Shown here piece by piece: positions 2,152 to 32,784 of a stretch of DNA of 32,784 nt. The notes beneath the pieces were generated by a model, which saw only the letters and a program-made list of their open reading frames with translations, was not told where the DNA came from and made no database searches. Origin of the DNA: a virus. Taxonomy: Duplodnaviria > Caudoviricetes. Made by a program: the position numbers and the translations under genes. The DNA is taken from the IMG/VR virus record IMGVR_UViG_3300048598_000307, positions 1-32,784 of that record. One strand, written 5' to 3'. The stretch's first letter is position 1; each line of letters opens with the position of its first letter.

Positions 2152-4778
2152 CCGATCCTTCCTTTCAGCAGCGTCTCGATGTCGACCTGCGCGGCTAGCA
2201 TCGTTGAGGCGTCGATCCGGCCGTCGATCCGCGTCAGGGCATCGATCCAGCCCAACAGCTCGGAGATCGGGATGTCTTCCAGATCAGCGGCGAGTGCGCC
2301 GATGGCCTGGACAAGATCCGCACCCGATTCGAGCGCCCCCAGAACGCCGGCGAGCGAGATGTTGCCAAGCGCATGCAGCTCGTCCGCGGCCTCAACCGAG
2401 GTCAGGGCGCCTGCTATGGCCAGCGCGCCGTCCAGCGCGGCAACGTCGACGCCGCGATCGACAATGATTGCCGTACCGGCTGCGACCAGAGACCCCACAA
2501 TGCCGAGCTGATCGGGACTGCTGCCGATCGAGCCGAGCGAACCGGCGATGGACGAGCTTCCTGAGGCAGCGGCAGCGTCGGCGTCGCCCGCCAAGGCATC
2601 GACCAGGCCAGCGATGGCGATCGATCCGGAGGCGGCCGCCGTGTCCGAGCCGACGTCCGTCGCCTGGACTGCACCAATCGCGATCCTGCCTCCGATGATG
2701 AAGGCGCTGTCGCCACCAATATCCTGGGCCGAAATGCCACCGGCGATGGGCAGTCCGCCGATCAGCGCAAGCGAATCCGGCGCCTGTTCAGCAGCGGCAA
2801 GGGAGCCAGAGCAGCCGGTCGATCCTGAGAGCGCTGCCAGCTCGCCCGCGTTGTCGATTACGCTGATACCGCCCGCAACAGTGGTCCCGCCGATCGCTGC
2901 GGTGGTATCACTGGAACCGTCAACCAGCACGGCTGCGCCGCCGATCGCCACGCGTCCGGTTGCTGAAGCTGTGTCGCCGGCCGACTCCATTACGACGATA
3001 TCGCCGGAGATCGTGGGCAGGCTCGTCGAGCCCGAGGCCACGACGCTATCCGCCCCGCTCTCGCCGACATCGAGCGATCCGCCGATCGTGACCGCGCCCG
3101 ACCCGGTGGCCGTATCGCTAGCGCCTTCCGGAACTGCCAGAGAGCCAGCCAATGCGACCATACCGGCGGCCGAGGTTGTATCCGAGCCGCTGTCGGTGGC
3201 CGAAAGCGCGCCGACGATGGTTGGACTGCCCGAAGGCCCATCAGCTGTGATCGTGAAGCGGACCCTGCCGTTGCCGCCTGTACCGCCATTGCCCGACGCG
3301 CCAGAGATGGCGCCACCACCGCCGCCCGGAGCTGCCGCCGCAGCAACCGACGTACCCGTGCTGGAGGCACCGCCCAGACCACCGTCAGGCGATCCTGCTG
3401 CGCCTTGCGTGGCTCCTGAAGCGTTGCCACCGGCGCCGGCCGAGCCCGCGCCGCCTCCGCCTGCGCCGCGAAGCGTCGTGCCGGAGCCAGTGTTGCCGCC
3501 GGCGCCGCCCGCGAACTTGGTCGTGCCGATCGAGGCAGCCGTCGTGCCGCCCGCACCGTTGACCGTCGAGGTGCCGGCCGAGCCTGCCTTCGCCAGCGCG
3601 CCATGCGACACCAGCGTCGGCGCGGTGTTCGTGGTGATCCGGATCCATGTGTCGCTGGATGGCGCGCCGCCGGTGGTGGCGCTCGTACCAGCTGCACCGG
3701 CGCCTACATTCCAATAAATCGTGTCGCCGACGCTGACGGGCCAGCCGTCGCCAGCGTTGTTTGATGCCGCGAAGGCGCCGCCGCCCGAACCACGACCGCG
3801 TCGAGGGCCGCCGGCACCTGGCCCCCAGCCTTCAACGAGGTTGAGGACGCCAGTCCCGTTCGGCAGCTCGGTCGAGGTGAGCGTAAGAGACCCTGAACCA
3901 GTCGTGCTGACCGTCGTAGTGACCGGAGCGAGCGTAATCGGCGCGCTATCCGCGGTGACCACCTCAACTGAGTCGCCTATGGCGTTCGTCGCAATGACGC
4001 CGAAAGCGAGAGTTTGCCCCTCGTCACCGGAAACAGGCGTGTAGTTCGGCGAGGCCGATCGGCTGCCTCTCGCAACCCCGCCGACATATGGCAGGAAACC
4101 ATAGCTCGTAGGGCTATCAGTCCACGCGCCATTGGAGCAGGTATTGACCTGACCTAGCGCAGGCGTCGTGTCGCTCAGTGTCGGGACGCTGGTGTTGCTC
4201 GGCGGATTGGTCGGGCCAGCGCTGGCGCCAAGCCAAGCGAACCCGCTCGGAACCGTCAGACCAGCTGCGACCGGATCGTCGATGATCGTGACAGGGTTTG
4301 GGCCCGGAATAACGGCCGGGACATGCCCTGAACCCACAAGCGGATTGACAATTCCGCCTGTTCCGAGAGCCGGGTTTCCCGAGCTTAGAAGGGTGTTGCC
4401 TTTGTAAGCCCAGAGGCGGTTAGCATCGACATCGACCGCAAACATGACGATGTCGTTGGCGAGGACATCACCGCCGTAAGACTCGTAACCTGAGGCTGCG
4501 CCGGCGGCATCAAGCCAGACAGCTTGGATATCGCCGTACTCTTGGACGATGAACCCAGACCCACCACTGTAGCTCGGAAAACTCCAGGATGGTTGCAGCG
4601 CTCCAACAACCTGAACGCCACCTTCCAAGGCAACGCCCAGGCGGAAAGCGAAGGCGCATTTACCAGTAAGAGCGGTGTTGGTCTTGGCGCCGGGATCAGC
4701 GCCAGTGCCCGTAGCGGTCAGATTGCCGTTCGAGAGGCTGACGTTATTCGAGCCGGTGAGCGTGAACTGTAGCGGCAC
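2148..4778 (-). CDS. Large modular fibre/adhesin-like protein: SPRY-like domain, Ig-like domain, Gly-rich domain, ~22-aa tandem repeats
   Basis: LSNGNLTAT...DIVMFAVDVDANRLW (SPRY-like); PSNTSVPTLS...GQVNTCSNGAW...YTPVSGDEGQTL (Ig-like); EGWGPGAGG...GGNGRVRF (Gly-rich); repeated GxLxxxExxxDxxxxxGxxxxxG units. Confidence 0.75.
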   Translation of the reverse strand: MPLQFTLTGSNNVSLSNGNLTATGTGADPGAKTNTALTGKCAFAFRLGVALEGGVQVVGALQPSWSFPSYSGGSGFIVQEYGDIQAVWLDAAGAASGYESYGGDVLANDIVMFAVDVDANRLWAYKGNTLLSSGNPALGTGGIVNPLVGSGHVPAVIPGPNPVTIIDDPVAAGLTVPSGFAWLGASAGPTNPPSNTSVPTLSDTTPALGQVNTCSNGAWTDSPTSYGFLPYVGGVARGSRSASPNYTPVSGDEGQTLAFGVIATNAIGDSVEVVTADSAPITLAPVTTTVSTTGSGSLTLTSTELPNGTGVLNLVEGWGPGAGGPRRGRGSGGGAFAASNNAGDGWPVSVGDTIYWNVGAGAAGTSATTGGAPSSDTWIRITTNTAPTLVSHGALAKAGSAGTSTVNGAGGTTAASIGTTKFAGGAGGNTGSGTTLRGAGGGGAGSAGAGGNASGATQGAAGSPDGGLGGASSTGTSVAAAAAPGGGGGAISGASGNGGTGGNGRVRFTITADGPSGSPTIVGALSATDSGSDTTSAAGMVALAGSLAVPEGASDTATGSGAVTIGGSLDVGESGADSVVASGSTSLPTISGDIVVMESAGDTASATGRVAIGGAAVLVDGSSDTTAAIGGTTVAGGISVIDNAGELAALSGSTGCSGSLAAAEQAPDSLALIGGLPIAGGISAQDIGGDSAFIIGGRIAIGAVQATDVGSDTAAASGSIAIAGLVDALAGDADAAAASGSSSIAGSLGSIGSSPDQLGIVGSLVAAGTAIIVDRGVDVAALDGALAIAGALTSVEAADELHALGNISLAGVLGALESGADLVQAIGALAADLEDIPISELLGWIDALTRIDGRIDASTMLAAQVDIETLLKGRIG

Positions 4779-9852: not shown

Positions 9853-9910
9853 GGCGCCGAAAGTGACGCGCGCGCGCAAGCTGCGGCACGCCCCGATCTC
9901 GGGGCATCAC
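9853..9910 (-). promoter_or_regulatory. Late promoter copy 3 (imperfect palindrome plus -10 CACTTT) upstream of gp46
   Basis: CGGCACGCCCCGATCTCGGGGCATCAC (9884-9910), 24/27 identical to the copies at 22205 and 29699. Confidence 0.75.
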
Positions 9911-9972: not shown

Positions 9973-10461
9973 ATGCTCACCGATCGAGACCAAACACCCA
10001 TCATCCCGCGGATGGCGGTTGCCTACCATGAGGCTGGACATGCGCTTGCCGCCCTGCATGTGGGCAACCGGATCGATTTCGCTTCTATCGACGGCGCAGT
10101 CTCCTACAAAGCTGACGCAACCGGCCTAGCCCCGGCACAACAGCGAGCGTTCGTCGCTGATCAAATGTTCGTTCTATGGGCTGGGCATTCTGCCGAGCTG
10201 CTCTTCTGGAGAAGCTTCGCCGGGGAGAAGCCAGAATTCCTGACAAGCCACCGCAATGATGTCCGCAAGGCGGAAAATTGGGCGCGCCTTGTCGCAAATC
10301 GAGAGGAAGACGTCAGCGAGCTCATGGATGAGGCTCGATCCCGTGCTTTTCGATTCGCTGTCACCTACTCGCAAACTCTCACGGCCCTGGCCTCGCGCCT
10401 TTCTGAGACTGGTGAGATGTCGGAGGAGGAGATCCGCGGCATCGCAGCCGCGACGTTTTAA
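9973..10461 (+). CDS. Stand-alone peptidase M41 (FtsH protease domain)-like zinc metalloprotease, antisense moron
   Basis: AYHEAGH zinc motif, LWAGHSAE, downstream ND, and C-terminal LASRLSETGEMSEEEI as in M41 domains; no AAA or TM part. Confidence 0.78.
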   Translation: MLTDRDQTPIIPRMAVAYHEAGHALAALHVGNRIDFASIDGAVSYKADATGLAPAQQRAFVADQMFVLWAGHSAELLFWRSFAGEKPEFLTSHRNDVRKAENWARLVANREEDVSELMDEARSRAFRFAVTYSQTLTALASRLSETGEMSEEEIRGIAAATF

Positions 10462-11023: not shown

Positions 11024-12268
11024 TCAGAGCGGGTTGGCGGTGCCGTCGAGCTTGCCGGCCTTGCCCGAGCTAGCCTTGCCCTTGGACTTGCCCGAACCCT
11101 TGTCCGCGCGGCGATCATTCTCCGGCAGGAGGTCGTAGGCTTCCGGCCCTGTGATCCGCAGCTTGGTCTGAGGCCCGCGGTCGCCATAGGCGACGCGGAT
11201 GCCGGCGATGAGCATGTCGCGGTCGAGGTTCGAGTAGGCATCGGAGACGCCGGCGATGGTGTTGGGTTTCCAGAACTGGCCGTTCGCCTGGAAATCCGGC
11301 CAGGCGTAATCCTCCTTGTCGCCCTTGCCCCGCCGGGTCCGCATCTCCCACTCGGCCTGGCGCTGGGCGTCGAAGGCCGTGGCCTTGGTGCGGGCCATGG
11401 CTATGAAGGGCCGCCAGCGCGTTACCTCCGGATCCCGGGCATGGCCCATGACGAGCGTGCCTGCGCCTTCCGGCACATCCTGCGGGTCGTCGGTCGCCGG
11501 GGCCGACTGGGCGGGCGCCGACTCGAGCGGCTCGGCCGAGGCATCGAGCGCGGCTGTCTTCGAGCGGCGGCCGCCGTTCTTCTCGCTCTGGCCCTTCACG
11601 AAATAGTCGCTGAAGCGTTCCCGCGCCGAGAAGGAGCCGCGCAGCCTGGTGATGTTTCCCGGAAAGCGGATATCGCTGGCGGCGCGCTCCTGGCCGGAGC
11701 GGGTGATGACGAGCGTGCCGACGCGGTCGGTGGTGATGAGGACGCCGCGCTGCTTGGCGTATTTCGCGAGGATGGAGAGGACAGTCTCGCCGGCCTCCAC
11801 CGTGCATTTGTCGAAGTTCGGGGAAACATCGGTATCGCAGCGCACCTTGATGCCGAAGGGCGCGCAGAGCTTCTCCGCGAGCTCGGTCAGCGAGATGTCG
11901 CGATACTCGTGCTTGCCACGCGGATCCGGCGGACAGTCGACCAGGTCGCCGGTCAGGTCGCGACCAGTGATGACGGTACCGGACTGGCCGACCGAGGCGT
12001 CCGGCATGACGTCGTCGATGTAACCAATGAGCCAGACCACGCCGTCGATCTTGATGGTGACCTTCTTGCCCCAGTCGAGCAGGCCAGAGCCGTCGACGGC
12101 GGCCGCATGCTCCCAGGCCTGCATGGCGCGGAGCTCGTCCCGGCAAGCGAGTTCGAACGAGGCCGAGAGCTCCGAGAGATCATGGCAGAGATCGGCGCGG
12201 TAGAACTGGGTGAAGTCGTTGTCGTCGATCGAGAGCGTGATCCGCCGCGTCGGCTCGACCGCGATCAC
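11024..12268 (-). CDS. Baseplate hub / tail protein P (gp44)
   Basis: GTG at 12268 overlaps gp43 stop; GYIDD, ITGRDLTGDLVDC, ERFSDYFVKGQ, QAEWE, WKPN. Confidence 0.9.
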   Translation of the reverse strand: MIAVEPTRRITLSIDDNDFTQFYRADLCHDLSELSASFELACRDELRAMQAWEHAAAVDGSGLLDWGKKVTIKIDGVVWLIGYIDDVMPDASVGQSGTVITGRDLTGDLVDCPPDPRGKHEYRDISLTELAEKLCAPFGIKVRCDTDVSPNFDKCTVEAGETVLSILAKYAKQRGVLITTDRVGTLVITRSGQERAASDIRFPGNITRLRGSFSARERFSDYFVKGQSEKNGGRRSKTAALDASAEPLESAPAQSAPATDDPQDVPEGAGTLVMGHARDPEVTRWRPFIAMARTKATAFDAQRQAEWEMRTRRGKGDKEDYAWPDFQANGQFWKPNTIAGVSDAYSNLDRDMLIAGIRVAYGDRGPQTKLRITGPEAYDLLPENDRRADKGSGKSKGKASSGKAGKLDGTANPL

Positions 12269-13599
12269 CGGAGCACCTCGACCGGGCCGGCGCCCAGCAT
12301 CGTCGGATGGCGCAGCCGGTTGCGCCGGACGATATCGGTGGCGAAGGCGATGACGGCGGACGGATCGTCGCCGACCAGATGCTGCGCCAGCAACAGTGCG
12401 GAGGCGTTGCCGGGCGGCTCGATCATCTCGACCGAAGGCAAGCGGCCGATCGCTTCCGACAGGTCCATGGCGAGCTTGGCGCGCAGCTCGCCCAGCGCTC
12501 GCCACAAGGCGGCCGCCGGCGCGACCTGGCTGCCGGCAAGCTCGGCCGCGCTGCGCTGCGACCGGCGCAGGCGATCGTCGAGCGTGGCGCAGATGCCCTG
12601 GGCGTCCTGCCGGGAGTTGAAGGGGATTTGAACGACGAGCCGGGCCGCCTCGGCCAACGCGCCGGCCTCGGCCGCGCAGAGCACGGCGCGCTCTGGAGCA
12701 CCGGTCGGCAACGCGACCGCGGTGATCGACGGGAGGCCGACCACCGGCACGTCGTCGGCGGGGCGCAGGCGCCGGCCGATATCGCTCGCAACGCCCATGA
12801 GCAGGATGGCACCGGCGCGTGGATTCGCCGGTACCGGCGCGATGGCCTCGGGGCCGGAGCCGATTCCGCTGGCGGGCTGCGGCCGGTGAATGGCGGACAT
12901 CGAGGCGAACAAGGCCGCCGGCGCGGCGGCCAGGGCTGAGGCGGTCTCGACCCGGGACGGCAGGGCCACCGCGGCCGCGATCGCGGCCTCGGCCGAGGCG
13001 ACGGCCGGCAGGAGCGAGGCCGCGCGCTGCGCCTGACCTGCCCAGCCGCCGGTGACGGCGATCGCGGTGCCGACCGCGCTGACGGCGCGGGCATAGGTTG
13101 CGGCGGCCAGCGGCGATGCCGACAGGGCAAGCCGCGCCAGCGAGACGGCTGCGCCGCCCAGCGCGCCGGCGGCGACCAGGAGTGGACCAAGCGTTGCGAG
13201 GAATCCGGCGCCGACCGTGACGGGATCGAATTCGGCATCGATGCGCGCGACGCGCAGCTCCGAGACGTCGAACTCGATCGAGGCCGGGCGGAAGAGCACG
13301 CAGCGGATCGGCCCGCGCCACGGATGGATGAAGGTCGCCGGGCCCGGCGCGCGGAAGGCGGCGTGCAGGGCCTGCGCTTGGGCGACATAGTCGTCGCCGA
13401 TGACCAGGCCGGAGATCCGGATCGGCCCGTCGAGCGGGCCGGTATCGTCATGGGTCTTCAGGTCGAGCCCCGGAAACAGAACCTGGTGGATGCGCCGGCC
13501 GACCGAATGCTGGGCGTTGATCACCCAGAAGGGCTGGCCGCGCCAGGCGGCGGGCATCAGTCCCGGCAGCAGGCCGTCGATGTCGTCGAACAGGCTCAT
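12265..13599 (-). CDS. DNA circularisation protein N (gp43)
   Basis: AAWRGQPF, GRR, GDDY, GPATFIHPWRG, RNRLRHP; ATG 13599 overlaps TMP stop. Confidence 0.9.
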   Translation of the reverse strand: MSLFDDIDGLLPGLMPAAWRGQPFWVINAQHSVGRRIHQVLFPGLDLKTHDDTGPLDGPIRISGLVIGDDYVAQAQALHAAFRAPGPATFIHPWRGPIRCVLFRPASIEFDVSELRVARIDAEFDPVTVGAGFLATLGPLLVAAGALGGAAVSLARLALSASPLAAATYARAVSAVGTAIAVTGGWAGQAQRAASLLPAVASAEAAIAAAVALPSRVETASALAAAPAALFASMSAIHRPQPASGIGSGPEAIAPVPANPRAGAILLMGVASDIGRRLRPADDVPVVGLPSITAVALPTGAPERAVLCAAEAGALAEAARLVVQIPFNSRQDAQGICATLDDRLRRSQRSAAELAGSQVAPAAALWRALGELRAKLAMDLSEAIGRLPSVEMIEPPGNASALLLAQHLVGDDPSAVIAFATDIVRRNRLRHPTMLGAGPVEVLR

Positions 13600-15620
13600 G
13601 CGCGACCGAGCATGCTGCCGCGGTTCGGCGTGATCGGCACGGCCGGGTTCTCCGACTGGACGTTGACGACGCGCGAGCCCTCCGACGCCTCGACGACGAT
13701 GCGGCCGCCGACCTGCATGTTGCTGTTCGAAGCCGGGCCGCCCGCGGTGCGCGTGAAGCCGGCCGAACCGCCGACGCCGCCTCCAGGCGCTGAGCCAGGC
13801 GTGATCATGCCAGTTGGATTGCCCATCGGGTCTACGCCGCTGCCACCGGGCGTGCCAGGAGCCGCTCCACCGCCCAGCCAGGAGGGAAGCTTGATCATCT
13901 TTGAGAGATCGATGCTGCCGATCGCCGAGATGATCCGGCTCGGAAGACCGGCGCACAGTGCGATGAGCGCGTCGATGCCGCGCGCGAATCCATCGACCAA
14001 GGATTTAGCCAGCTGCGACCCTACGGCGACGAGGTCGACCTTCATCAATGCATCGACGAGCTGCTGGCCGGCTTGGGTGCCCGCCCGAGAGACAGCCGCA
14101 CCGAACTCGACCATCGCCGTCCAGGCCCGGCTGGGCCAGCTGGTGACGGCCTCAGCGACATTCGTCCAGATCTGGGAGAGCTGCGGACCAATAGCCGACC
14201 AGTTCTGCCAGACGTAGAGCGCGCCGGCCGCCAGGGCGGCAAGCCCCGTGACGATCAGCCCGATCGGCGAGAGGAGCAAAGCCAGTACAGCAGCCAATGC
14301 ACTGACGATCGGCGTGAGGATGGCAATTGCAGCTCCGAGCGCGAGCAGAGCACCGGTCCAGGACAGGACGCCGTTGATCAGGCCGGGCCACTTCTTGTCG
14401 ACCTGGTCGATCCAGTGAAGAAGCTGCTGGAGCCAGCTTATCGCCGTGGGCAGATTTGATGCGAAGGCGAGCCCGATCCGATTGCCGAGAGACCCTGTCA
14501 GTACGCCGAACTGCTTCAGTTGGGGCTCAAGCCCTTTCATGCGCGTCGCGAAGTCGTCGATGATGACGTCGGTCCCCGCTTCCTTCAGCTGACGCTTGAA
14601 GTCCTTGTACTTGTCGACGGCCTGCATGAAGGGCAGCAGGAAGCCGAGCACCTGCATGTCGGCATAGAGCTTGCCGACCTTCGTGCCTTCCAGCAGCGTG
14701 CGAATCTGCTTTTCGCGTTCCTTATCGTTGACCCCGGCCTTCTTCATGATCTTGTCGATCTCGGCCTGCTGGGGCTTCAGCTTATCCATCATCTTCTGAA
14801 GGACAGCCTCGATAGGATTGATGCCCTTGGCCGCAGCGTTGGTCATGACGCCAGTGACATCGACCTTCAGCTCCTTCTCAAACTTCTTGATCGCTTCAGG
14901 AGCGTTGATCTTGGTCAGGAAGTTATTGAGGTTCGTCGCCGCCTGGCTGGGGTCGGCCGTCCCGAGCATGGCGATCTGCAGGCTGGCTCCGAGCGTCTCG
15001 ACCGCCTCGGCGCCAGCGACCCCGAATTTGGCCATCTGAGCCGAGAGCTCCGGAAACTCGCGGGCCATGTTGGCGAACTCAAAACGGCCCAGCTTGCCGG
15101 CAACGACGAGCTTACCCAGCATCGCTTCCATCTGTTCCGCAGGCACTTTCAAGGACTCGCTGAGAGAGAAGGCCGTTTTCGCCGTGTCATCGATCGTCGC
15201 GCCCGTCGCGGTCGCGACCTTGGCGATCGTCGGCATCAGCTTGTCGATCAGGGCGGAATTCATGCCCGCCGAGATCAGCGTCTTTGCGCCCTTTGCTACG
15301 TCCATCGAGCTCTGGCCGGTATCGAATGCGAGCTTCTGGTACTGCTTCGACAGATCTCCGATCATGGTCTCAGCCGCCGCACCGGCCTTCCCGGCGGTGA
15401 TCGCGATGTCACGGAGCTGCGCGTCCCAAGCCGCTGCCTGCTGAATCGGCGCCGTAAAGGAGAGCGCGGCAAGCGCGCCACCGATCACGCCGATGCGGCG
15501 GCCGAGATCTCCGACCGCCGTGGCCGTGGCCGAGATTCCCCGAGTAAGGCCGCGGAGAGGCGCCGTCAGCCGGTCGACCAACTGGACGAGGACCGAAACC
15601 TTCATGTTCGGATTGGCCAT
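13596..15620 (-). CDS. Tail tape measure protein
   Basis: 674 aa, LVDRLTAPLR, AGKLGRFE..NMAREFP, AATNLNNFL; position after tail chaperone. Confidence 0.92.
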   Translation of the reverse strand: MANPNMKVSVLVQLVDRLTAPLRGLTRGISATATAVGDLGRRIGVIGGALAALSFTAPIQQAAAWDAQLRDIAITAGKAGAAAETMIGDLSKQYQKLAFDTGQSSMDVAKGAKTLISAGMNSALIDKLMPTIAKVATATGATIDDTAKTAFSLSESLKVPAEQMEAMLGKLVVAGKLGRFEFANMAREFPELSAQMAKFGVAGAEAVETLGASLQIAMLGTADPSQAATNLNNFLTKINAPEAIKKFEKELKVDVTGVMTNAAAKGINPIEAVLQKMMDKLKPQQAEIDKIMKKAGVNDKEREKQIRTLLEGTKVGKLYADMQVLGFLLPFMQAVDKYKDFKRQLKEAGTDVIIDDFATRMKGLEPQLKQFGVLTGSLGNRIGLAFASNLPTAISWLQQLLHWIDQVDKKWPGLINGVLSWTGALLALGAAIAILTPIVSALAAVLALLLSPIGLIVTGLAALAAGALYVWQNWSAIGPQLSQIWTNVAEAVTSWPSRAWTAMVEFGAAVSRAGTQAGQQLVDALMKVDLVAVGSQLAKSLVDGFARGIDALIALCAGLPSRIISAIGSIDLSKMIKLPSWLGGGAAPGTPGGSGVDPMGNPTGMITPGSAPGGGVGGSAGFTRTAGGPASNSNMQVGGRIVVEASEGSRVVNVQSENPAVPITPNRGSMLGRA

Positions 15621-22173: not shown

Positions 22174-22231
22174 CCCTGCCAATCTGGCGGGATCGGATAT
22201 GACGCGGCACGCCCCGATATCGGGGCGTCAG
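22174..22231 (-). promoter_or_regulatory. Late promoter copy 2 (PI-like): perfect 20-bp palindrome plus -10 CAGATT
   Basis: ACGCCCCGATATCGGGGCGT at 22209-22228. Confidence 0.8.
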
Positions 22232-29667: not shown

Positions 29668-29725
29668 CAGAGCGAAGATGCGGGGATCGTCAGGAAGCCG
29701 GCACGCCCCGATATCGGGGCGTCAG
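29668..29725 (-). promoter_or_regulatory. Late promoter copy 1 (Plys-like): perfect 20-bp palindrome plus -10 CATCTT
   Basis: ACGCCCCGATATCGGGGCGT at 29703-29722, touching the stop codon of the Mor/C gene. Confidence 0.8.
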
Positions 29726-30084
29726 CGGAACAGGTTGAGCTGGAGGGCGGCGGGGCGCCCATGGCGCTGCAGGATATCGTGCACCGTGTTCTCGGTGCAT
29801 CCCGCGCGCTGCGCAGTCTGCCGGCGGTTCAGCCCCATGGCAATGTAGCAGACCACGCGCCACTGCCGTCCGAACGGGACCTTGATCCAGTTGCGTCCGA
29901 ATTTCTCATGGAGCTTGGTCGCGGCGTCAAGCCCGACGATGCGGGTCACTTCGGTTTCCGGCCCCGGATCCGAGACATAAAGACGGCTACCGCCACGCTC
30001 CTCCAGCAGCTTCAACGCAGCCTCGGCGCCGATCAGCTCGACGAAGCGGGCGACATCGTCCGTGGGGGGCGGCAGCTGGGTCAT
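29722..30084 (-). CDS. Mor/C-family transcription activator
   Basis: IGAEAALKL....GG..LYV, FG...I.VP, C-terminal HTH (RRQTAQRAGCTENTVHDIL); upstream of lysis genes. Confidence 0.88.
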   Translation of the reverse strand: MTQLPPPTDDVARFVELIGAEAALKLLEERGGSRLYVSDPGPETEVTRIVGLDAATKLHEKFGRNWIKVPFGRQWRVVCYIAMGLNRRQTAQRAGCTENTVHDILQRHGRPAALQLNLFR

Positions 30085-30317
30085 CGCCGGCGCTTTCGGG
30101 GATGGCGATCGTCGGCAATGACCGTGACAAGGTTGCCGCTCTCGACGACGTAGCGCAGGCCATCCACCACGATGACGTAGTTCGCGGTGCCGGCGCGCTC
30201 GGCCATCTTGCGCCCGCGCTCCAGCGAGCCGGAGATCATGGCGCGCAGCTGCTCGACATCCAGCGCACCGGAGCGCTCAAGGAAGCGGACGAAGGCGTGA
30301 TCGGTGACGTGGATCAT
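30081..30317 (-). CDS. Hypothetical protein, 78 aa (TDHA..RFLER motif)
   Basis: ATG 30317 overlaps gemA stop; stop overlaps Mor start. Confidence 0.75.
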   Translation of the reverse strand: MIHVTDHAFVRFLERSGALDVEQLRAMISGSLERGRKMAERAGTANYVIVVDGLRYVVESGNLVTVIADDRHPRKRRR

Positions 30318-30709
30318 GCCTTTTCCCTCACCCGCTTCTGCCAGGCCTTCAGCTGCTCGATCGCCTCGCGTGCCTGAAGCGGCTTCAGGAATTCGGGCGC
30401 GGCGACCTTGAAGCGGCCGAGCACCCAGGCTCGCAGCGCGTCTCGATCGAGCGGGCCGGAATGGAGAGCGCCCCACAGCGCGTAGATCTTGCGCGTGTCG
30501 GCGCGCTCGGCCGGCGGCCTGGTCGATTCCCGCGCCTGCCAGCCGAGACGCTTGAACTCGGCGATGACGGCGATCGCGGCTTTCTCCGAGAGATCCTTCG
30601 CACTGGCGACCTTCCCGACGCGCTGAAGCAAAGCCCGATATTCTTCCTCTTGGAGCTTCAGCTCCTTCTTCGCGATGTGGATCTTCGCGAGCATGGCGGG
30701 ATGGCTCAT
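30314..30709 (-). CDS. gemA: GemA/gp16-family protein (DUF1018)
   Basis: AKIHIAKKEL, YRALL, SAKDL, KIYALW, IEQLKAW. Confidence 0.9.
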   Translation of the reverse strand: MSHPAMLAKIHIAKKELKLQEEEYRALLQRVGKVASAKDLSEKAAIAVIAEFKRLGWQARESTRPPAERADTRKIYALWGALHSGPLDRDALRAWVLGRFKVAAPEFLKPLQAREAIEQLKAWQKRVREKA

Positions 30710-30933
30710 CGACCGGTCCTCGCGATCGCGGCGAGCAGCTCCAGGCGCCGCTTCGTCAGCCGCTTCAATTCGGTTTCAACGGTGGTGGAGCGCCTCGGCG
30801 CCACATCCGCCAGCACCTTGGCCAGCCGCTCGCGCTTCTCGTCGATCCGGCCGAGCTCGTCCTTCGCCAGCAGGGCCGAGATGGCGCTGGCGTCGGAGGG
30901 AGCTGGGCGGGGAGCGAAGAAGCGCGAGGCCAT
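30706..30933 (-). CDS. Hypothetical protein, 75 aa
   Basis: SD GGAGG, stop overlaps gemA start; predicted helical. Confidence 0.7.
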   Translation of the reverse strand: MASRFFAPRPAPSDASAISALLAKDELGRIDEKRERLAKVLADVAPRRSTTVETELKRLTKRRLELLAAIARTGR

Positions 30934-30936
30934 GGC

Positions 30937-31614
30937 TCAGCCTCCGAGCTCAAGGAGCGGGGCCGGCGCCGGCTTGGCGAAGCGTGCGGCATCCAGGCGA
31001 TGGGTGTGAAGCTTGCGCTGGCCGGGCGGGATCCAGAGCGGCGCGCGCGGCTCGGCGCCATGCTTCCAGCAGACCCAGCAGTAATCGGTCGCGGTATCGC
31101 CATCCGGCTCCCAGCGCCCGCGATGCATCGGCACGCGCTCGACATAATAGGCGATGAGGAAGGGCGCGAATTCCTGGAAGAGCTGATAGCGCTCGATCGT
31201 GTGCAGCCACTGCGTCCGGACCAGGAGCGAGACGCCGCGGCGCGCCAGCCGGAGGGCGACGCGGGCGAATTCCACGGCGAGGTTGAAGGGCGGATTCGTG
31301 AAGGCCCAGTCGCAGGCGCCGAGGTTCGGACCGGCTTCCAGGAAGTCGGAGACCTCGCCATAGCCGTAGGGGAAAATGTCGCTACCGCGCGTGAACGTGA
31401 AAGTCTCGCGCAGCGGCTCGGCCATGTGACCCTCGCCACAGGCGGGATCCAGTACGATGTCACTGGTCAGCACGCCAAGCACCGGCAGCGCGACATGGTG
31501 CACGAAGGCACGCGTCGCCCACGGCGGCGTCGGGAAGAAGTCGAGAGAGTCGGCCGGCTCGACGCGCTGCGCGGCGACTGCGGTTGAGAACGCGAAGGCG
31601 CGCTGGCCTTTCAT
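30937..31614 (-). CDS. SAM-dependent N6-adenine DNA methyltransferase-like protein
   Basis: DFFPTPPW, LDPACGEG (motif I), TNPPF (motif IV). Confidence 0.85.
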   Translation of the reverse strand: MKGQRAFAFSTAVAAQRVEPADSLDFFPTPPWATRAFVHHVALPVLGVLTSDIVLDPACGEGHMAEPLRETFTFTRGSDIFPYGYGEVSDFLEAGPNLGACDWAFTNPPFNLAVEFARVALRLARRGVSLLVRTQWLHTIERYQLFQEFAPFLIAYYVERVPMHRGRWEPDGDTATDYCWVCWKHGAEPRAPLWIPPGQRKLHTHRLDAARFAKPAPAPLLELGG

Positions 31615-31658
31615 CGGACAATCCCCTTCAACTGCAGTCGTTGAGAAGGATCGACCCG

Positions 31659-32297
31659 ATGCTGGAACCTCGCCCGAGAGTTGCGCGCCGCCCTCGGCAC
31701 GGCGCGCACATCACCACCCTGTTCACGAAGCGATATGGCTTCTCGCAGGAGGTTCTTGCCGATATCGGCCTGCTTTTTCTCGCCTGGTCCCTCTTCGAGA
31801 ACGAAGTCGAGATGGCAATTTGGAAGCTGACGGAAATGCCTGTCGCGAAGCAGCGACCGGCCACCGACAAAATGCAATCGGCCGAACGCCTCAAAGCGCT
31901 CAACGATGCTATCGCTGGCCGAATTGGCCCCGAACAAAAAAGGGCTCTTGCGCTGTTTAGCGAGACCGCCGAGCACGTGCTCGCCTACCGCAATGCCATT
32001 GCCCACGGCCGGCCGTTCGGAGGGGCGATCGGAGGCCAGATGTCTATGAGCAACTACTCGTTCCACGGTGAGCGTCGAAAGCGACCTGCGGAGGTGGCCC
32101 ACTTCCTCCCGTCGATCCTGAAGCTTGCGTTGGAAGCCCTCGAAACGTTGCACCTTTGCGTCTACCAGCTTCAGATGACGCGCAACGCAGACGAAGGGAT
32201 CGCGCTGATGCTGAGCGATCCCCATCTGGCTTCGGCCCGGTCCGCGGCTCATGAGGCTCGTCACATCGCGAGCATGATCAACCACGAGAAGTATTGA
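31659..32297 (+). CDS. HEPN-motif protein, antisense moron, 212 aa
   Basis: SD GAGAAGGA before ATG 31659; IG..F.AWS.FE N-terminal helix and RNAIAH (Rx4H) motif; all-helical composition. Confidence 0.7.
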   Translation: MLEPRPRVARRPRHGAHITTLFTKRYGFSQEVLADIGLLFLAWSLFENEVEMAIWKLTEMPVAKQRPATDKMQSAERLKALNDAIAGRIGPEQKRALALFSETAEHVLAYRNAIAHGRPFGGAIGGQMSMSNYSFHGERRKRPAEVAHFLPSILKLALEALETLHLCVYQLQMTRNADEGIALMLSDPHLASARSAAHEARHIASMINHEKY

Positions 32298-32311
32298 ACT
32301 GACGAAATTCA

Positions 32312-32722
32312 TCACGCCGGCTCCCAGCGGATGAGCACGCCTGTGAACAACAGTTCCGCATCCGACGCCTCGGAGTGCGCTGCTCGCCAGAACGCGCGCA
32401 TATCTTCCCAATGAAGGAAGCCGTCCTGCCTGGCGAAATCGTCGAGGGGATCGGCGAGTTGGATCACCTCGTCGTTGTCGAGGAAGTGCACGAAGGCGTC
32501 GGTCACGAAGAGCCGCAGCGGACGCACCTCTAGGCACATCTGGTCGGCGATGATCTTCCGGCAGTGCTTCGTCCGCATGCCCTGGTAGAGCTGGATTGCC
32601 TCGCCAGGCTGGGCATGGCGTTTGCGTGGCGCCCGGATGGTCTGGCGCTTTATGATGCCGGTGGCGGGATGCCCGTTCGCAATCGGCTCGGCGAAGCGCT
32701 TGTTGAACGAATAGGCGACCAT
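32312..32722 (-). CDS. ASCH/PUA-like domain protein
   Basis: YSFNKRF, KRQTIR, PGEAIQLYQGMRT, FARQDGF; SD GGAGGA. Confidence 0.8.
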   Translation of the reverse strand: MVAYSFNKRFAEPIANGHPATGIIKRQTIRAPRKRHAQPGEAIQLYQGMRTKHCRKIIADQMCLEVRPLRLFVTDAFVHFLDNDEVIQLADPLDDFARQDGFLHWEDMRAFWRAAHSEASDAELLFTGVLIRWEPA

Positions 32723-32784
32723 CAAGGTTGTCCTCCAGCGCCCGGCGCTGTCGCTGCGAGGATCTGGCTCTCCGCGATGGTTTC
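32722..32784 (-). CDS. 3' end of an upstream phage gene (partial)
   Basis: Open frame ETIAESQILAATAPGAGGQP* with TGA overlapping the ASCH ATG. Confidence 0.45.
   Translation of the reverse strand, partial: ETIAESQILAATAPGAGGQP

Follow-up and report, generated by a model that had tools for sequence, protein, structure and literature searches.

A stop-free frame coupled at both ends across an antisense HEPN-like gene in a Mu-like early operon: a candidate ribosome bridge

Antisense genes inside operons

It is known that a gene of the opposite strand, equipped with expression signals of its own, can lie inside a co-transcribed operon, as in the noncontiguous operons described for Staphylococcus aureus (the men operon) and for prophage 80alpha. 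In the covered sections of PMC11034616, the interrupted stretch is stated to be untranslated, reciprocal lysogenic and lytic expression is proposed, and the survival of such operons is attributed to uncoupled transcription in Gram-positive bacteria. A problem is left open there, as transcription across an untranslated antisense gene would be barred by polarity, that is, by Rho loading on untranslated RNA (PMC12548453, in part), wherever transcription and translation are coupled.

In the Tha/Ith pair of S. aureus prophages, a HEPN gene and an antisense ORF belong to opposed transcription units; the Ith protein, small and conserved, has a promoter of its own and inhibits Tha (PMC11087260, part covered). 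The B3-like transposable phage Fc02 carries in its early operon a lytic-strand ORF, gene 10, over a lysogeny-expressed antisense gene (gene 10/olg1-olg2); this gene shows exclusion activity and is conserved across beetreviruses, and the covered sections of PMC9936078 contain no coupling or polarity argument for it. By its position we take B3 ORF16, which is separated from the adjacent genes by 11 nt and 127 nt, to be the equivalent of gene 10. The reverse ORF of ambigrammatic narnaviruses is codon-aligned, has no known homologues, and its translation is proposed as its function (PMC8316113, part covered). Finally, coupling by ATGA or TGATG, with -4 or -1 junctions and a Shine-Dalgarno (SD) sequence inside the upstream ORF, links real genes (PMC12548453, PMC6728339 and PMC10666635, parts covered).

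The locus considered here belongs to the window, by which we mean the whole stretch of 32,784 nt that was analysed. As in noncontiguous operons, an opposite-strand gene is situated between two operon genes that adjoin each other at empty sites, and by analogy the layout works like such an operon, with co-transcription predicted; unlike there, the interrupting stretch bears a stop-free coupled ORF and comes from a proteobacterial phage. The ORF, hereafter the bridge, resembles Ith in opposing a HEPN-like gene, and differs from it in spanning the full gene, in lying on the lytic operon strand and in the lack of peptide conservation. With Fc02 the locus shares a transposable phage, an early operon and an ORF of the lytic strand over an antisense gene. 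The closest functional analogy is the narnavirus reverse ORF, although that one belongs to a eukaryotic RNA virus, overlaps a whole segment and involves neither operon coupling nor polarity. Where ATGA/TGATG coupling elsewhere links real genes, one link here is an apparent filler with an unconstrained peptide. The full-text literature searched contained no account of a filler frame spanning an antisense gene of a phage, although it may have been mentioned before.

The locus at the end of the early operon

The window locus closes the early operon of a Bosea-type, Mu-like prophage. On the minus strand it comprises an upstream gene (32312..32725; phrog_8581, unknown function), a DNA methyltransferase-like (MTase) gene (30937..31614; phrog_799), a conserved gene of 75 aa (30706..30933), gemA (30314..30709; PF06252), a conserved gene of 78 aa (30081..30317; phrog_8252) and, as the last gene of the coupled chain, a Mor/C-like late transcriptional activator (29722..30084; phrog_836). 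An initial sequence-only reading had called the upstream gene 'ASCH', a label that found no Pfam confirmation; we retain 'ASCH-like' as a name. The nearest relatives of the MTase occur in Bosea genomes. As in Mu-like early operons, gemA and mor/C end a chain that begins with ner and transposases A and B, this order being taken from relatives and named by analogy with the annotation of RR1-B and Aussie, as the window stops before the transposase. At two empty sites (L086, L091) the ASCH-like gene joins the MTase gene directly by ATGA.

Between these genes, on the plus strand, lies an antisense accessory gene of 212 aa encoding a HEPN-like predicted RNase (31659..32297), with an SD-like AAGGA ahead of its ATG (31646..31650) and an RNAIAH (RxxxxH) motif at 31989..32006. 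Its product has six homologues at 62-84% and 141 matches in a profile search, and in an alignment of 52 sequences no column is invariant except R111 and H116 of the motif. The AF2 model is mainly helical (pLDDT 94.9), with fold matches to 1wwp (Z 8.2, rmsd 2.7, 100 aligned), the HEPN structure 2hsb (Z 7.6, rmsd 3.0, 101 aligned), AbiA (Z 7.1) and the HEPN toxin 8xdj (Z 6.7); HEPN entries are among the top matches, with middling Z and interleaved with unrelated bundles. A Foldseek search of the PDB with the model yielded nothing at E<=0.001, Pfam HEPN_RiboL-PSP was matched by one of the 52 family members (E 0.0026), and PADLOC matched none (0/52). Given the homologues, the invariant RxxxxH, the confident helical model and the HEPN structures among the best fold matches, the gene is likely HEPN-like; it is likely also a predicted anti-phage gene, foreign to the phage operon. 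A search of viral contigs for this gene gave only one weak locus (L001, left out of the counts), and a search of annotated phages gave none. Scans of 31200-32784 revealed no terminator and no sigma-70 consensus, the latter scan being ill-suited to Alphaproteobacteria. In contigs assembled from four sequencing runs other genes occupy the slot, with loose ends at 31606 and 32309; these contigs contained no variant within the HEPN-like gene usable for dN/dS.

The bridge (minus strand, 32312-31611, 233 codons) is stop-free between its overlaps with both neighbours. At its start the minus strand reads ...GGGAGCCGGC GTG ATG AAT..., and the ATG at 32312 shares the A of the TGA of the upstream gene (32314-32312), yielding a -1 overlap, TGATG; the in-frame GTG at 32315 is an alternative start with a -4 overlap (31611..32315, 234 aa). 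The stop codon (TGA, 31613-31611) overlaps the ATG of the MTase gene (ATGA, -4). An SD-like GGGAG, kept at empty sites, precedes the bridge start within the end of the upstream gene (32321..32325, minus strand), and an SD-like AAGGGG lies within the bridge end before the MTase start (31623..31628, minus strand). The frame runs codon to codon opposite the HEPN-like gene, which has no TTA, CTA or TCA among its 24 Leu and 12 Ser codons. Hence the start at TGATG, the open frame, the ATGA end and the codon alignment described in the sequence-only reading are all borne out by the sequence and coordinates, and so is its remark that the product lacks a recognisable motif: the peptide has no Pfam or PHROG match, none of 555 candidates is homologous to it, it is absent from the protein collection searched, and its atlas scores (0.83-0.84) fall under the lead level.

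Upstream, the bridge frame continues without a stop through the ASCH-like gene as far as the window end (32312-32783, minus strand); relatives have comparable open +1 frames, and these look like GC bias. The possibility that the window bridge ends in the remnant of a 106-aa gene was rejected, the best end match (17/24) being within background. A C-rich, rut-like skew was looked for in the insert and not found; its operon strand is not C-rich (C/G 0.88 vs 1.05 in core genes).

Considered alone, the window bridge could be explained as a shadow ORF. The estimated probability that its frame is open is 0.084, which agrees with the caution, voiced at the outset, that openness by itself may be a shadow effect. 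The aligned antisense frame is open in 3/13 genes of 150-320 aa with similar GC3 (0.72-0.78) and in 183/289 genes at GC3>0.85, while the stop-rate bin at GC3 0.65-0.72 is based on 17 genes; open aligned frames are common in GC-rich genes, as stops require TTA, CTA or TCA codons, which are seldom used. The exact coupling at both ends, which had been thought harder to explain, is less surprising, because the overlap triplets are inherited from the empty site: 289/405 junctions of early operons between transposase A and mor already are -4 or -1, an upper figure, as the gene caller favoured coupled starts. With such junctions being usual, only the two frames (1/9) and the openness are free variables. 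At this locus alone, the pattern is within chance; it is the comparison between loci that reveals an excess.

Antisense genes in related prophages

The survey covered 28 prophage regions, some of them close kin: the window, 10 viral records and 17 contig stretches of 16 Bosea-group genomes. Genes were called on both strands by our own codon model with a coupling bonus; L302 and L313, being mostly host DNA, were excluded. There were 20 antisense calls in the early regions, of which we counted 14, setting five pre-transposase genes apart and dropping L278 c189 as a shadow (its sense ORF looks real); L283 c208 and L291 c220, shadows of other genes, had been dropped before counting.

If the open frames were shadow ORFs, they should be open at the rate set by codon usage, and their ends should be unrelated to the neighbouring genes. 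Neither holds across the inserts. In 13 of the 14 cases, the antisense gene between transposase A and mor is spanned by one codon-aligned, doubly coupled ORF. The bridged inserts (five HEPN homologues, three membrane proteins of 79-81 aa and five singletons) represent seven unrelated families; two of the singleton antisense products match PHROG, and none of the bridge products does. Bridges start at -4 in 12/13 cases and end at -4 in 11 and at -1 in 2, and a G-rich SD-like stretch closes all 13 of them, ahead of the next start. No stops are observed in the bridge frames, compared to 39.9 expected, with 1-22 stops in the other two sense frames over the same inserts. The probability of a frame match is 1/9 per insert, and 1.9e-6 over the six families other than the one in which the pattern was discovered; the loci are not independent. 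A survey of this kind had been asked for in the sequence-only reading, and its counts support the translational bridge inferred there.

The only exception is an early antisense gene in L298, which is unbridged though the core genes of the prophage look intact; the gene following it may have its own promoter. The L298 stretch (12063-13742, phage-oriented) comprises the unbridged gene, an antirepressor-like gene (by inspection) and a small gene. In L272 (11851-12849, phage-oriented), a bridge of 332 codons contains long stretches of glycine where the opposite strand is non-coding; phrog_11791 is matched by the antisense product there. Two bridges terminate in recognisable remnants of phage gene ends (20/24 nt; background 1/300), with which in-frame replacement as the origin of the inserts would fit. 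In the early regions of L262-L312, about a dozen small gene modules are reshuffled with nearly all junctions still at -4 or -1, and two different tail modules are joined to the same early region.

The pre-transposase slot holds six small antisense genes, five called and one found by hand (phage-oriented: L262 3736-3981, L268 3083-3328, L286 3370-3615, L294 2876-3154, L284 3607-4056, L278 595-828). The sense frames over them stop between -4 and +2 relative to the following gene, are mostly not codon-aligned, and have looser 5' overlaps or form a two-step chain. Several of these genes share an upstream 'EEAGM' stretch (SD-like), and ORFs resembling them are also present in L298 and L272.

Relatives of the HEPN-like gene provide a control for the codon usage of the family. 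The aligned frame is open in all five in-operon homologues, which are 24-38% identical in pairs and have four different pairs of flanking genes, and in none of the nine relatives situated elsewhere (Fisher p 0.0005). The latter contain 3 (L245), 2 (L248), 1 (L328), 7 (L329), 3 (L330), 5 (L324), 11 (L325), 7 (L326) and 4 (L327) stops in this frame. For weaker homologues the aligned frame is closed in 12/12, mostly at lower GC3.

Antisense genes of the late regions provide a control of another kind. The window contains a palindrome at 29700..29720 (minus strand) that recurs at 22206-22226 and at 9885-9905. These three sites, which the search lists for either strand, compare with an average of 0.10 in shuffles. 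The copies begin about 56 nt before the start codons of the lysis, protease and baseplate genes. Each phage has its private palindrome, which follows mor and also precedes the protease gene and a baseplate or tail gene, and in most cases it lies about 55 nt upstream of the start codon, a spacing that would fit leaderless transcripts. By analogy, the palindromes are likely putative activator sites of late promoters, the Mor/C sites of Mu being what we take as the model for this reading. Some copies resemble terminators; either way, as promoter or as terminator, the palindromes would mark transcript limits.

None of the four late antisense genes located directly upstream of a palindrome (the M41 gene of the window, L263, L283 and L273) is bridged, and each carries 2-4 TTA, CTA or TCA codons, that is, stops on the other strand; one late antisense gene away from a palindrome (L297) is bridged. 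In total, 14/15 are bridged vs 0/4 of the palindrome-adjacent genes (p 0.0013 by locus), or 8/9 vs 0/4 by family (p 0.007), with L281 left out of the count. L281 has two unbridged late antisense genes, which are not directly before a recognised palindrome; its stretch 2671-4657 (phage-oriented), between head genes, comprises these two AT-rich genes, one AAA-ATPase-like and the other its small partner, defence-like by inspection.

The M41 gene itself (9973-10461, plus strand) is small and antisense, and its product resembles peptidase M41 (Pfam E 2e-6, narrowly below the cut-off). It and the spike gene are arranged tail-to-tail; it lies upstream of the native palindrome at 9885-9905, and its slot carries other cargo in L263, L271, L283, L289 and L291. 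A new promoter had been proposed for this moron. However, the palindrome behind it is one of the three window copies and is present at the empty sites of L265, L267, L305 and L307, and hence the moron brought no new promoter.

We also compared 11 records of cultured transposable phages with the depositors' annotation. Antisense genes are annotated in the early operon of four phages and in none of the other seven records, and the aligned frame is open over all five antisense early genes of the four. In RR1-B the bridge runs from -4 to -4, and its start codon would be TTG. In Aussie an ORF of 294 aa starts at -4 and ends in the ATGA at 11050-11053, at which a second ORF starts that shares its register with the second antisense gene and runs to the -4 of gemA; in this Sinorhizobium phage (L316, 10169-11700) the frame switch falls inside the second of the two antisense genes. 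The bridge of RcWaterboi starts at -4 and ends 80 nt short of the next gene, and that of Mae-JY22 starts at -10 or -19 and ends 60 nt short. In LPB1 a promoter, 'Pgem', is annotated ahead of gemA; were Pgem present in the window phage, mor would not depend on read-through.

Taken together, these comparisons show that a frame both open and matched to the junctions is selected where read-through of the operon is required.

What the bridges may do

If the bridge and the antisense gene were dual-coding, both products should be conserved. For the bridges this is not the case. When the five HEPN bridges are aligned, 332 of 2008 codons give identical residues vs 344.5 +- 15.7 obtained by synonymous resampling, and homologues are lacking. 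In one pair of m79 bridges (84/129 identical), the same codons are conserved in 58/80 positions of the moron vs 47/80 of the bridge, and changes fall mostly at the moron third position. The resampling and pair comparisons thus show no selection on the bridge peptide. As conservation of the peptide does not exceed that expected from synonymous resampling, it is likely the translation itself, rather than the product, that is selected.

We consider it rather probable that the ORF is a selected ribosome bridge that covers the insert and keeps the early transcript from polarity termination. Inserts would arise by in-frame replacement between the inherited start and stop overlaps and persist only with an open aligned frame. 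After induction, ribosomes leaving the upstream gene would re-initiate at the start overlap, where the SD-like GGGAG is situated, and cover the 700-nt insert, so that the early transcript would not be terminated before the MTase gene, gemA and mor; the cost avoided would be Rho-type polarity. The HEPN-like gene would have its own promoter in the lysogen and be damped by lytic transcription. A translational bridge with an unimportant product is what the sequence-only reading had proposed, and it gains from the seven insert families, the stop avoidance, the lack of peptide conservation and the absence of bridges at putative promoters. The points against it are Pgem of LPB1, the lack of C-rich skew, the exceptions L298 and L281, the non-independence of the loci, the lower GC3 of several controls, the coupling bonus of the gene caller, the TTG start in RR1-B, and the case of Fc02, whose lytic-strand ORF over an antisense gene serves a function of its own.

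An alternative is a strict hand-off, where the MTase start is fed mainly by termination-reinitiation from the bridge and transcription termination is not at issue. The exact bridge ends at -4 or -1, the Aussie relay, which holds -4 at its internal switch, and the prevalence of such junctions in early operons (289/405) speak for it. On the other hand, all 13 bridges close with an SD-like stretch before the next start, the presence of many genes behind the inserts varies, and the bridges of RcWaterboi and Mae-JY22, ending 80 and 60 nt before the next gene, are more in keeping with cover by ribosomes than with a hand-off. We regard the strict hand-off as unlikely. Still less probable is a bridge that encodes a real protein, which might inhibit the HEPN toxin in the lytic phase, similar to Ith, or act as an exclusion factor, similar to Fc02 gene 10. 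There are precedents, as the antisense ith protein inhibits Tha (PMC11087260, part covered) and gene 10 and olg1 both exclude (PMC9936078, sections covered), and the m79 pair mentioned above is fairly similar. However, bridge products have neither homologue nor family, the five HEPN bridges are as identical to each other as shadow ORFs are expected to be, the m79 moron is more conserved than its bridge, seven unrelated inserts are all bridged, and one bridge has glycine runs over non-coding DNA.

To about the same low degree we would credit the possibility that bridge ribosomes shield the lytic mRNA from pairing with the moron transcript and from double-strand or endonucleolytic decay. The bridge frame covers precisely the complementary stretch, the unbridged slots sit at transcript ends, and narnavirus persistence needs an intact reverse ORF (PMC8316113, part covered); but such shielding does not require exact 3' coupling, and RNase III was not the principal factor in 80alpha (PMC11087260, part covered). 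The least plausible reading, and a very improbable one, is that of an unselected shadow ORF of a GC-rich gene combined with inherited junction triplets. The openness expected at the window locus, the open antisense frames of high-GC3 genes and the ATGA already present at empty sites are in line with it. Against it are the complete lack of stops in the bridge frames, the frame match in 13/14, the closed frames of all nine family controls and of all four promoter-adjacent controls, and the frame-switching relay in Aussie.

Returning to the ribosome bridge, a more general rule may follow, to which we would give an even chance: in proteobacterial temperate phages, any backward gene in a promoter-less stretch of a lytic operon would have to read on both strands, the filler ORF only carrying ribosomes. 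A stop-free coupled filler frame would solve the problem left open in PMC11034616 (sections covered), and the both-strand rule, if true, would be the proteobacterial answer to the paradox of noncontiguous operons. It would explain the avoidance of TTA, CTA and TCA codons, a signature by which antisense defence genes might be sought and the limits of prophage operons mapped. Annotators would be warned that long antisense ORFs at such sites are neither noise nor ordinary genes, and engineered phage operons would gain a design rule for the placement of cargo. For the phages themselves, the rule would filter which defence genes can be acquired, and the bridges would amount to a lasting supply of random peptides that are translated, out of which anti-toxin peptides or overlapping genes of the kind of Fc02 gene 10 may arise.
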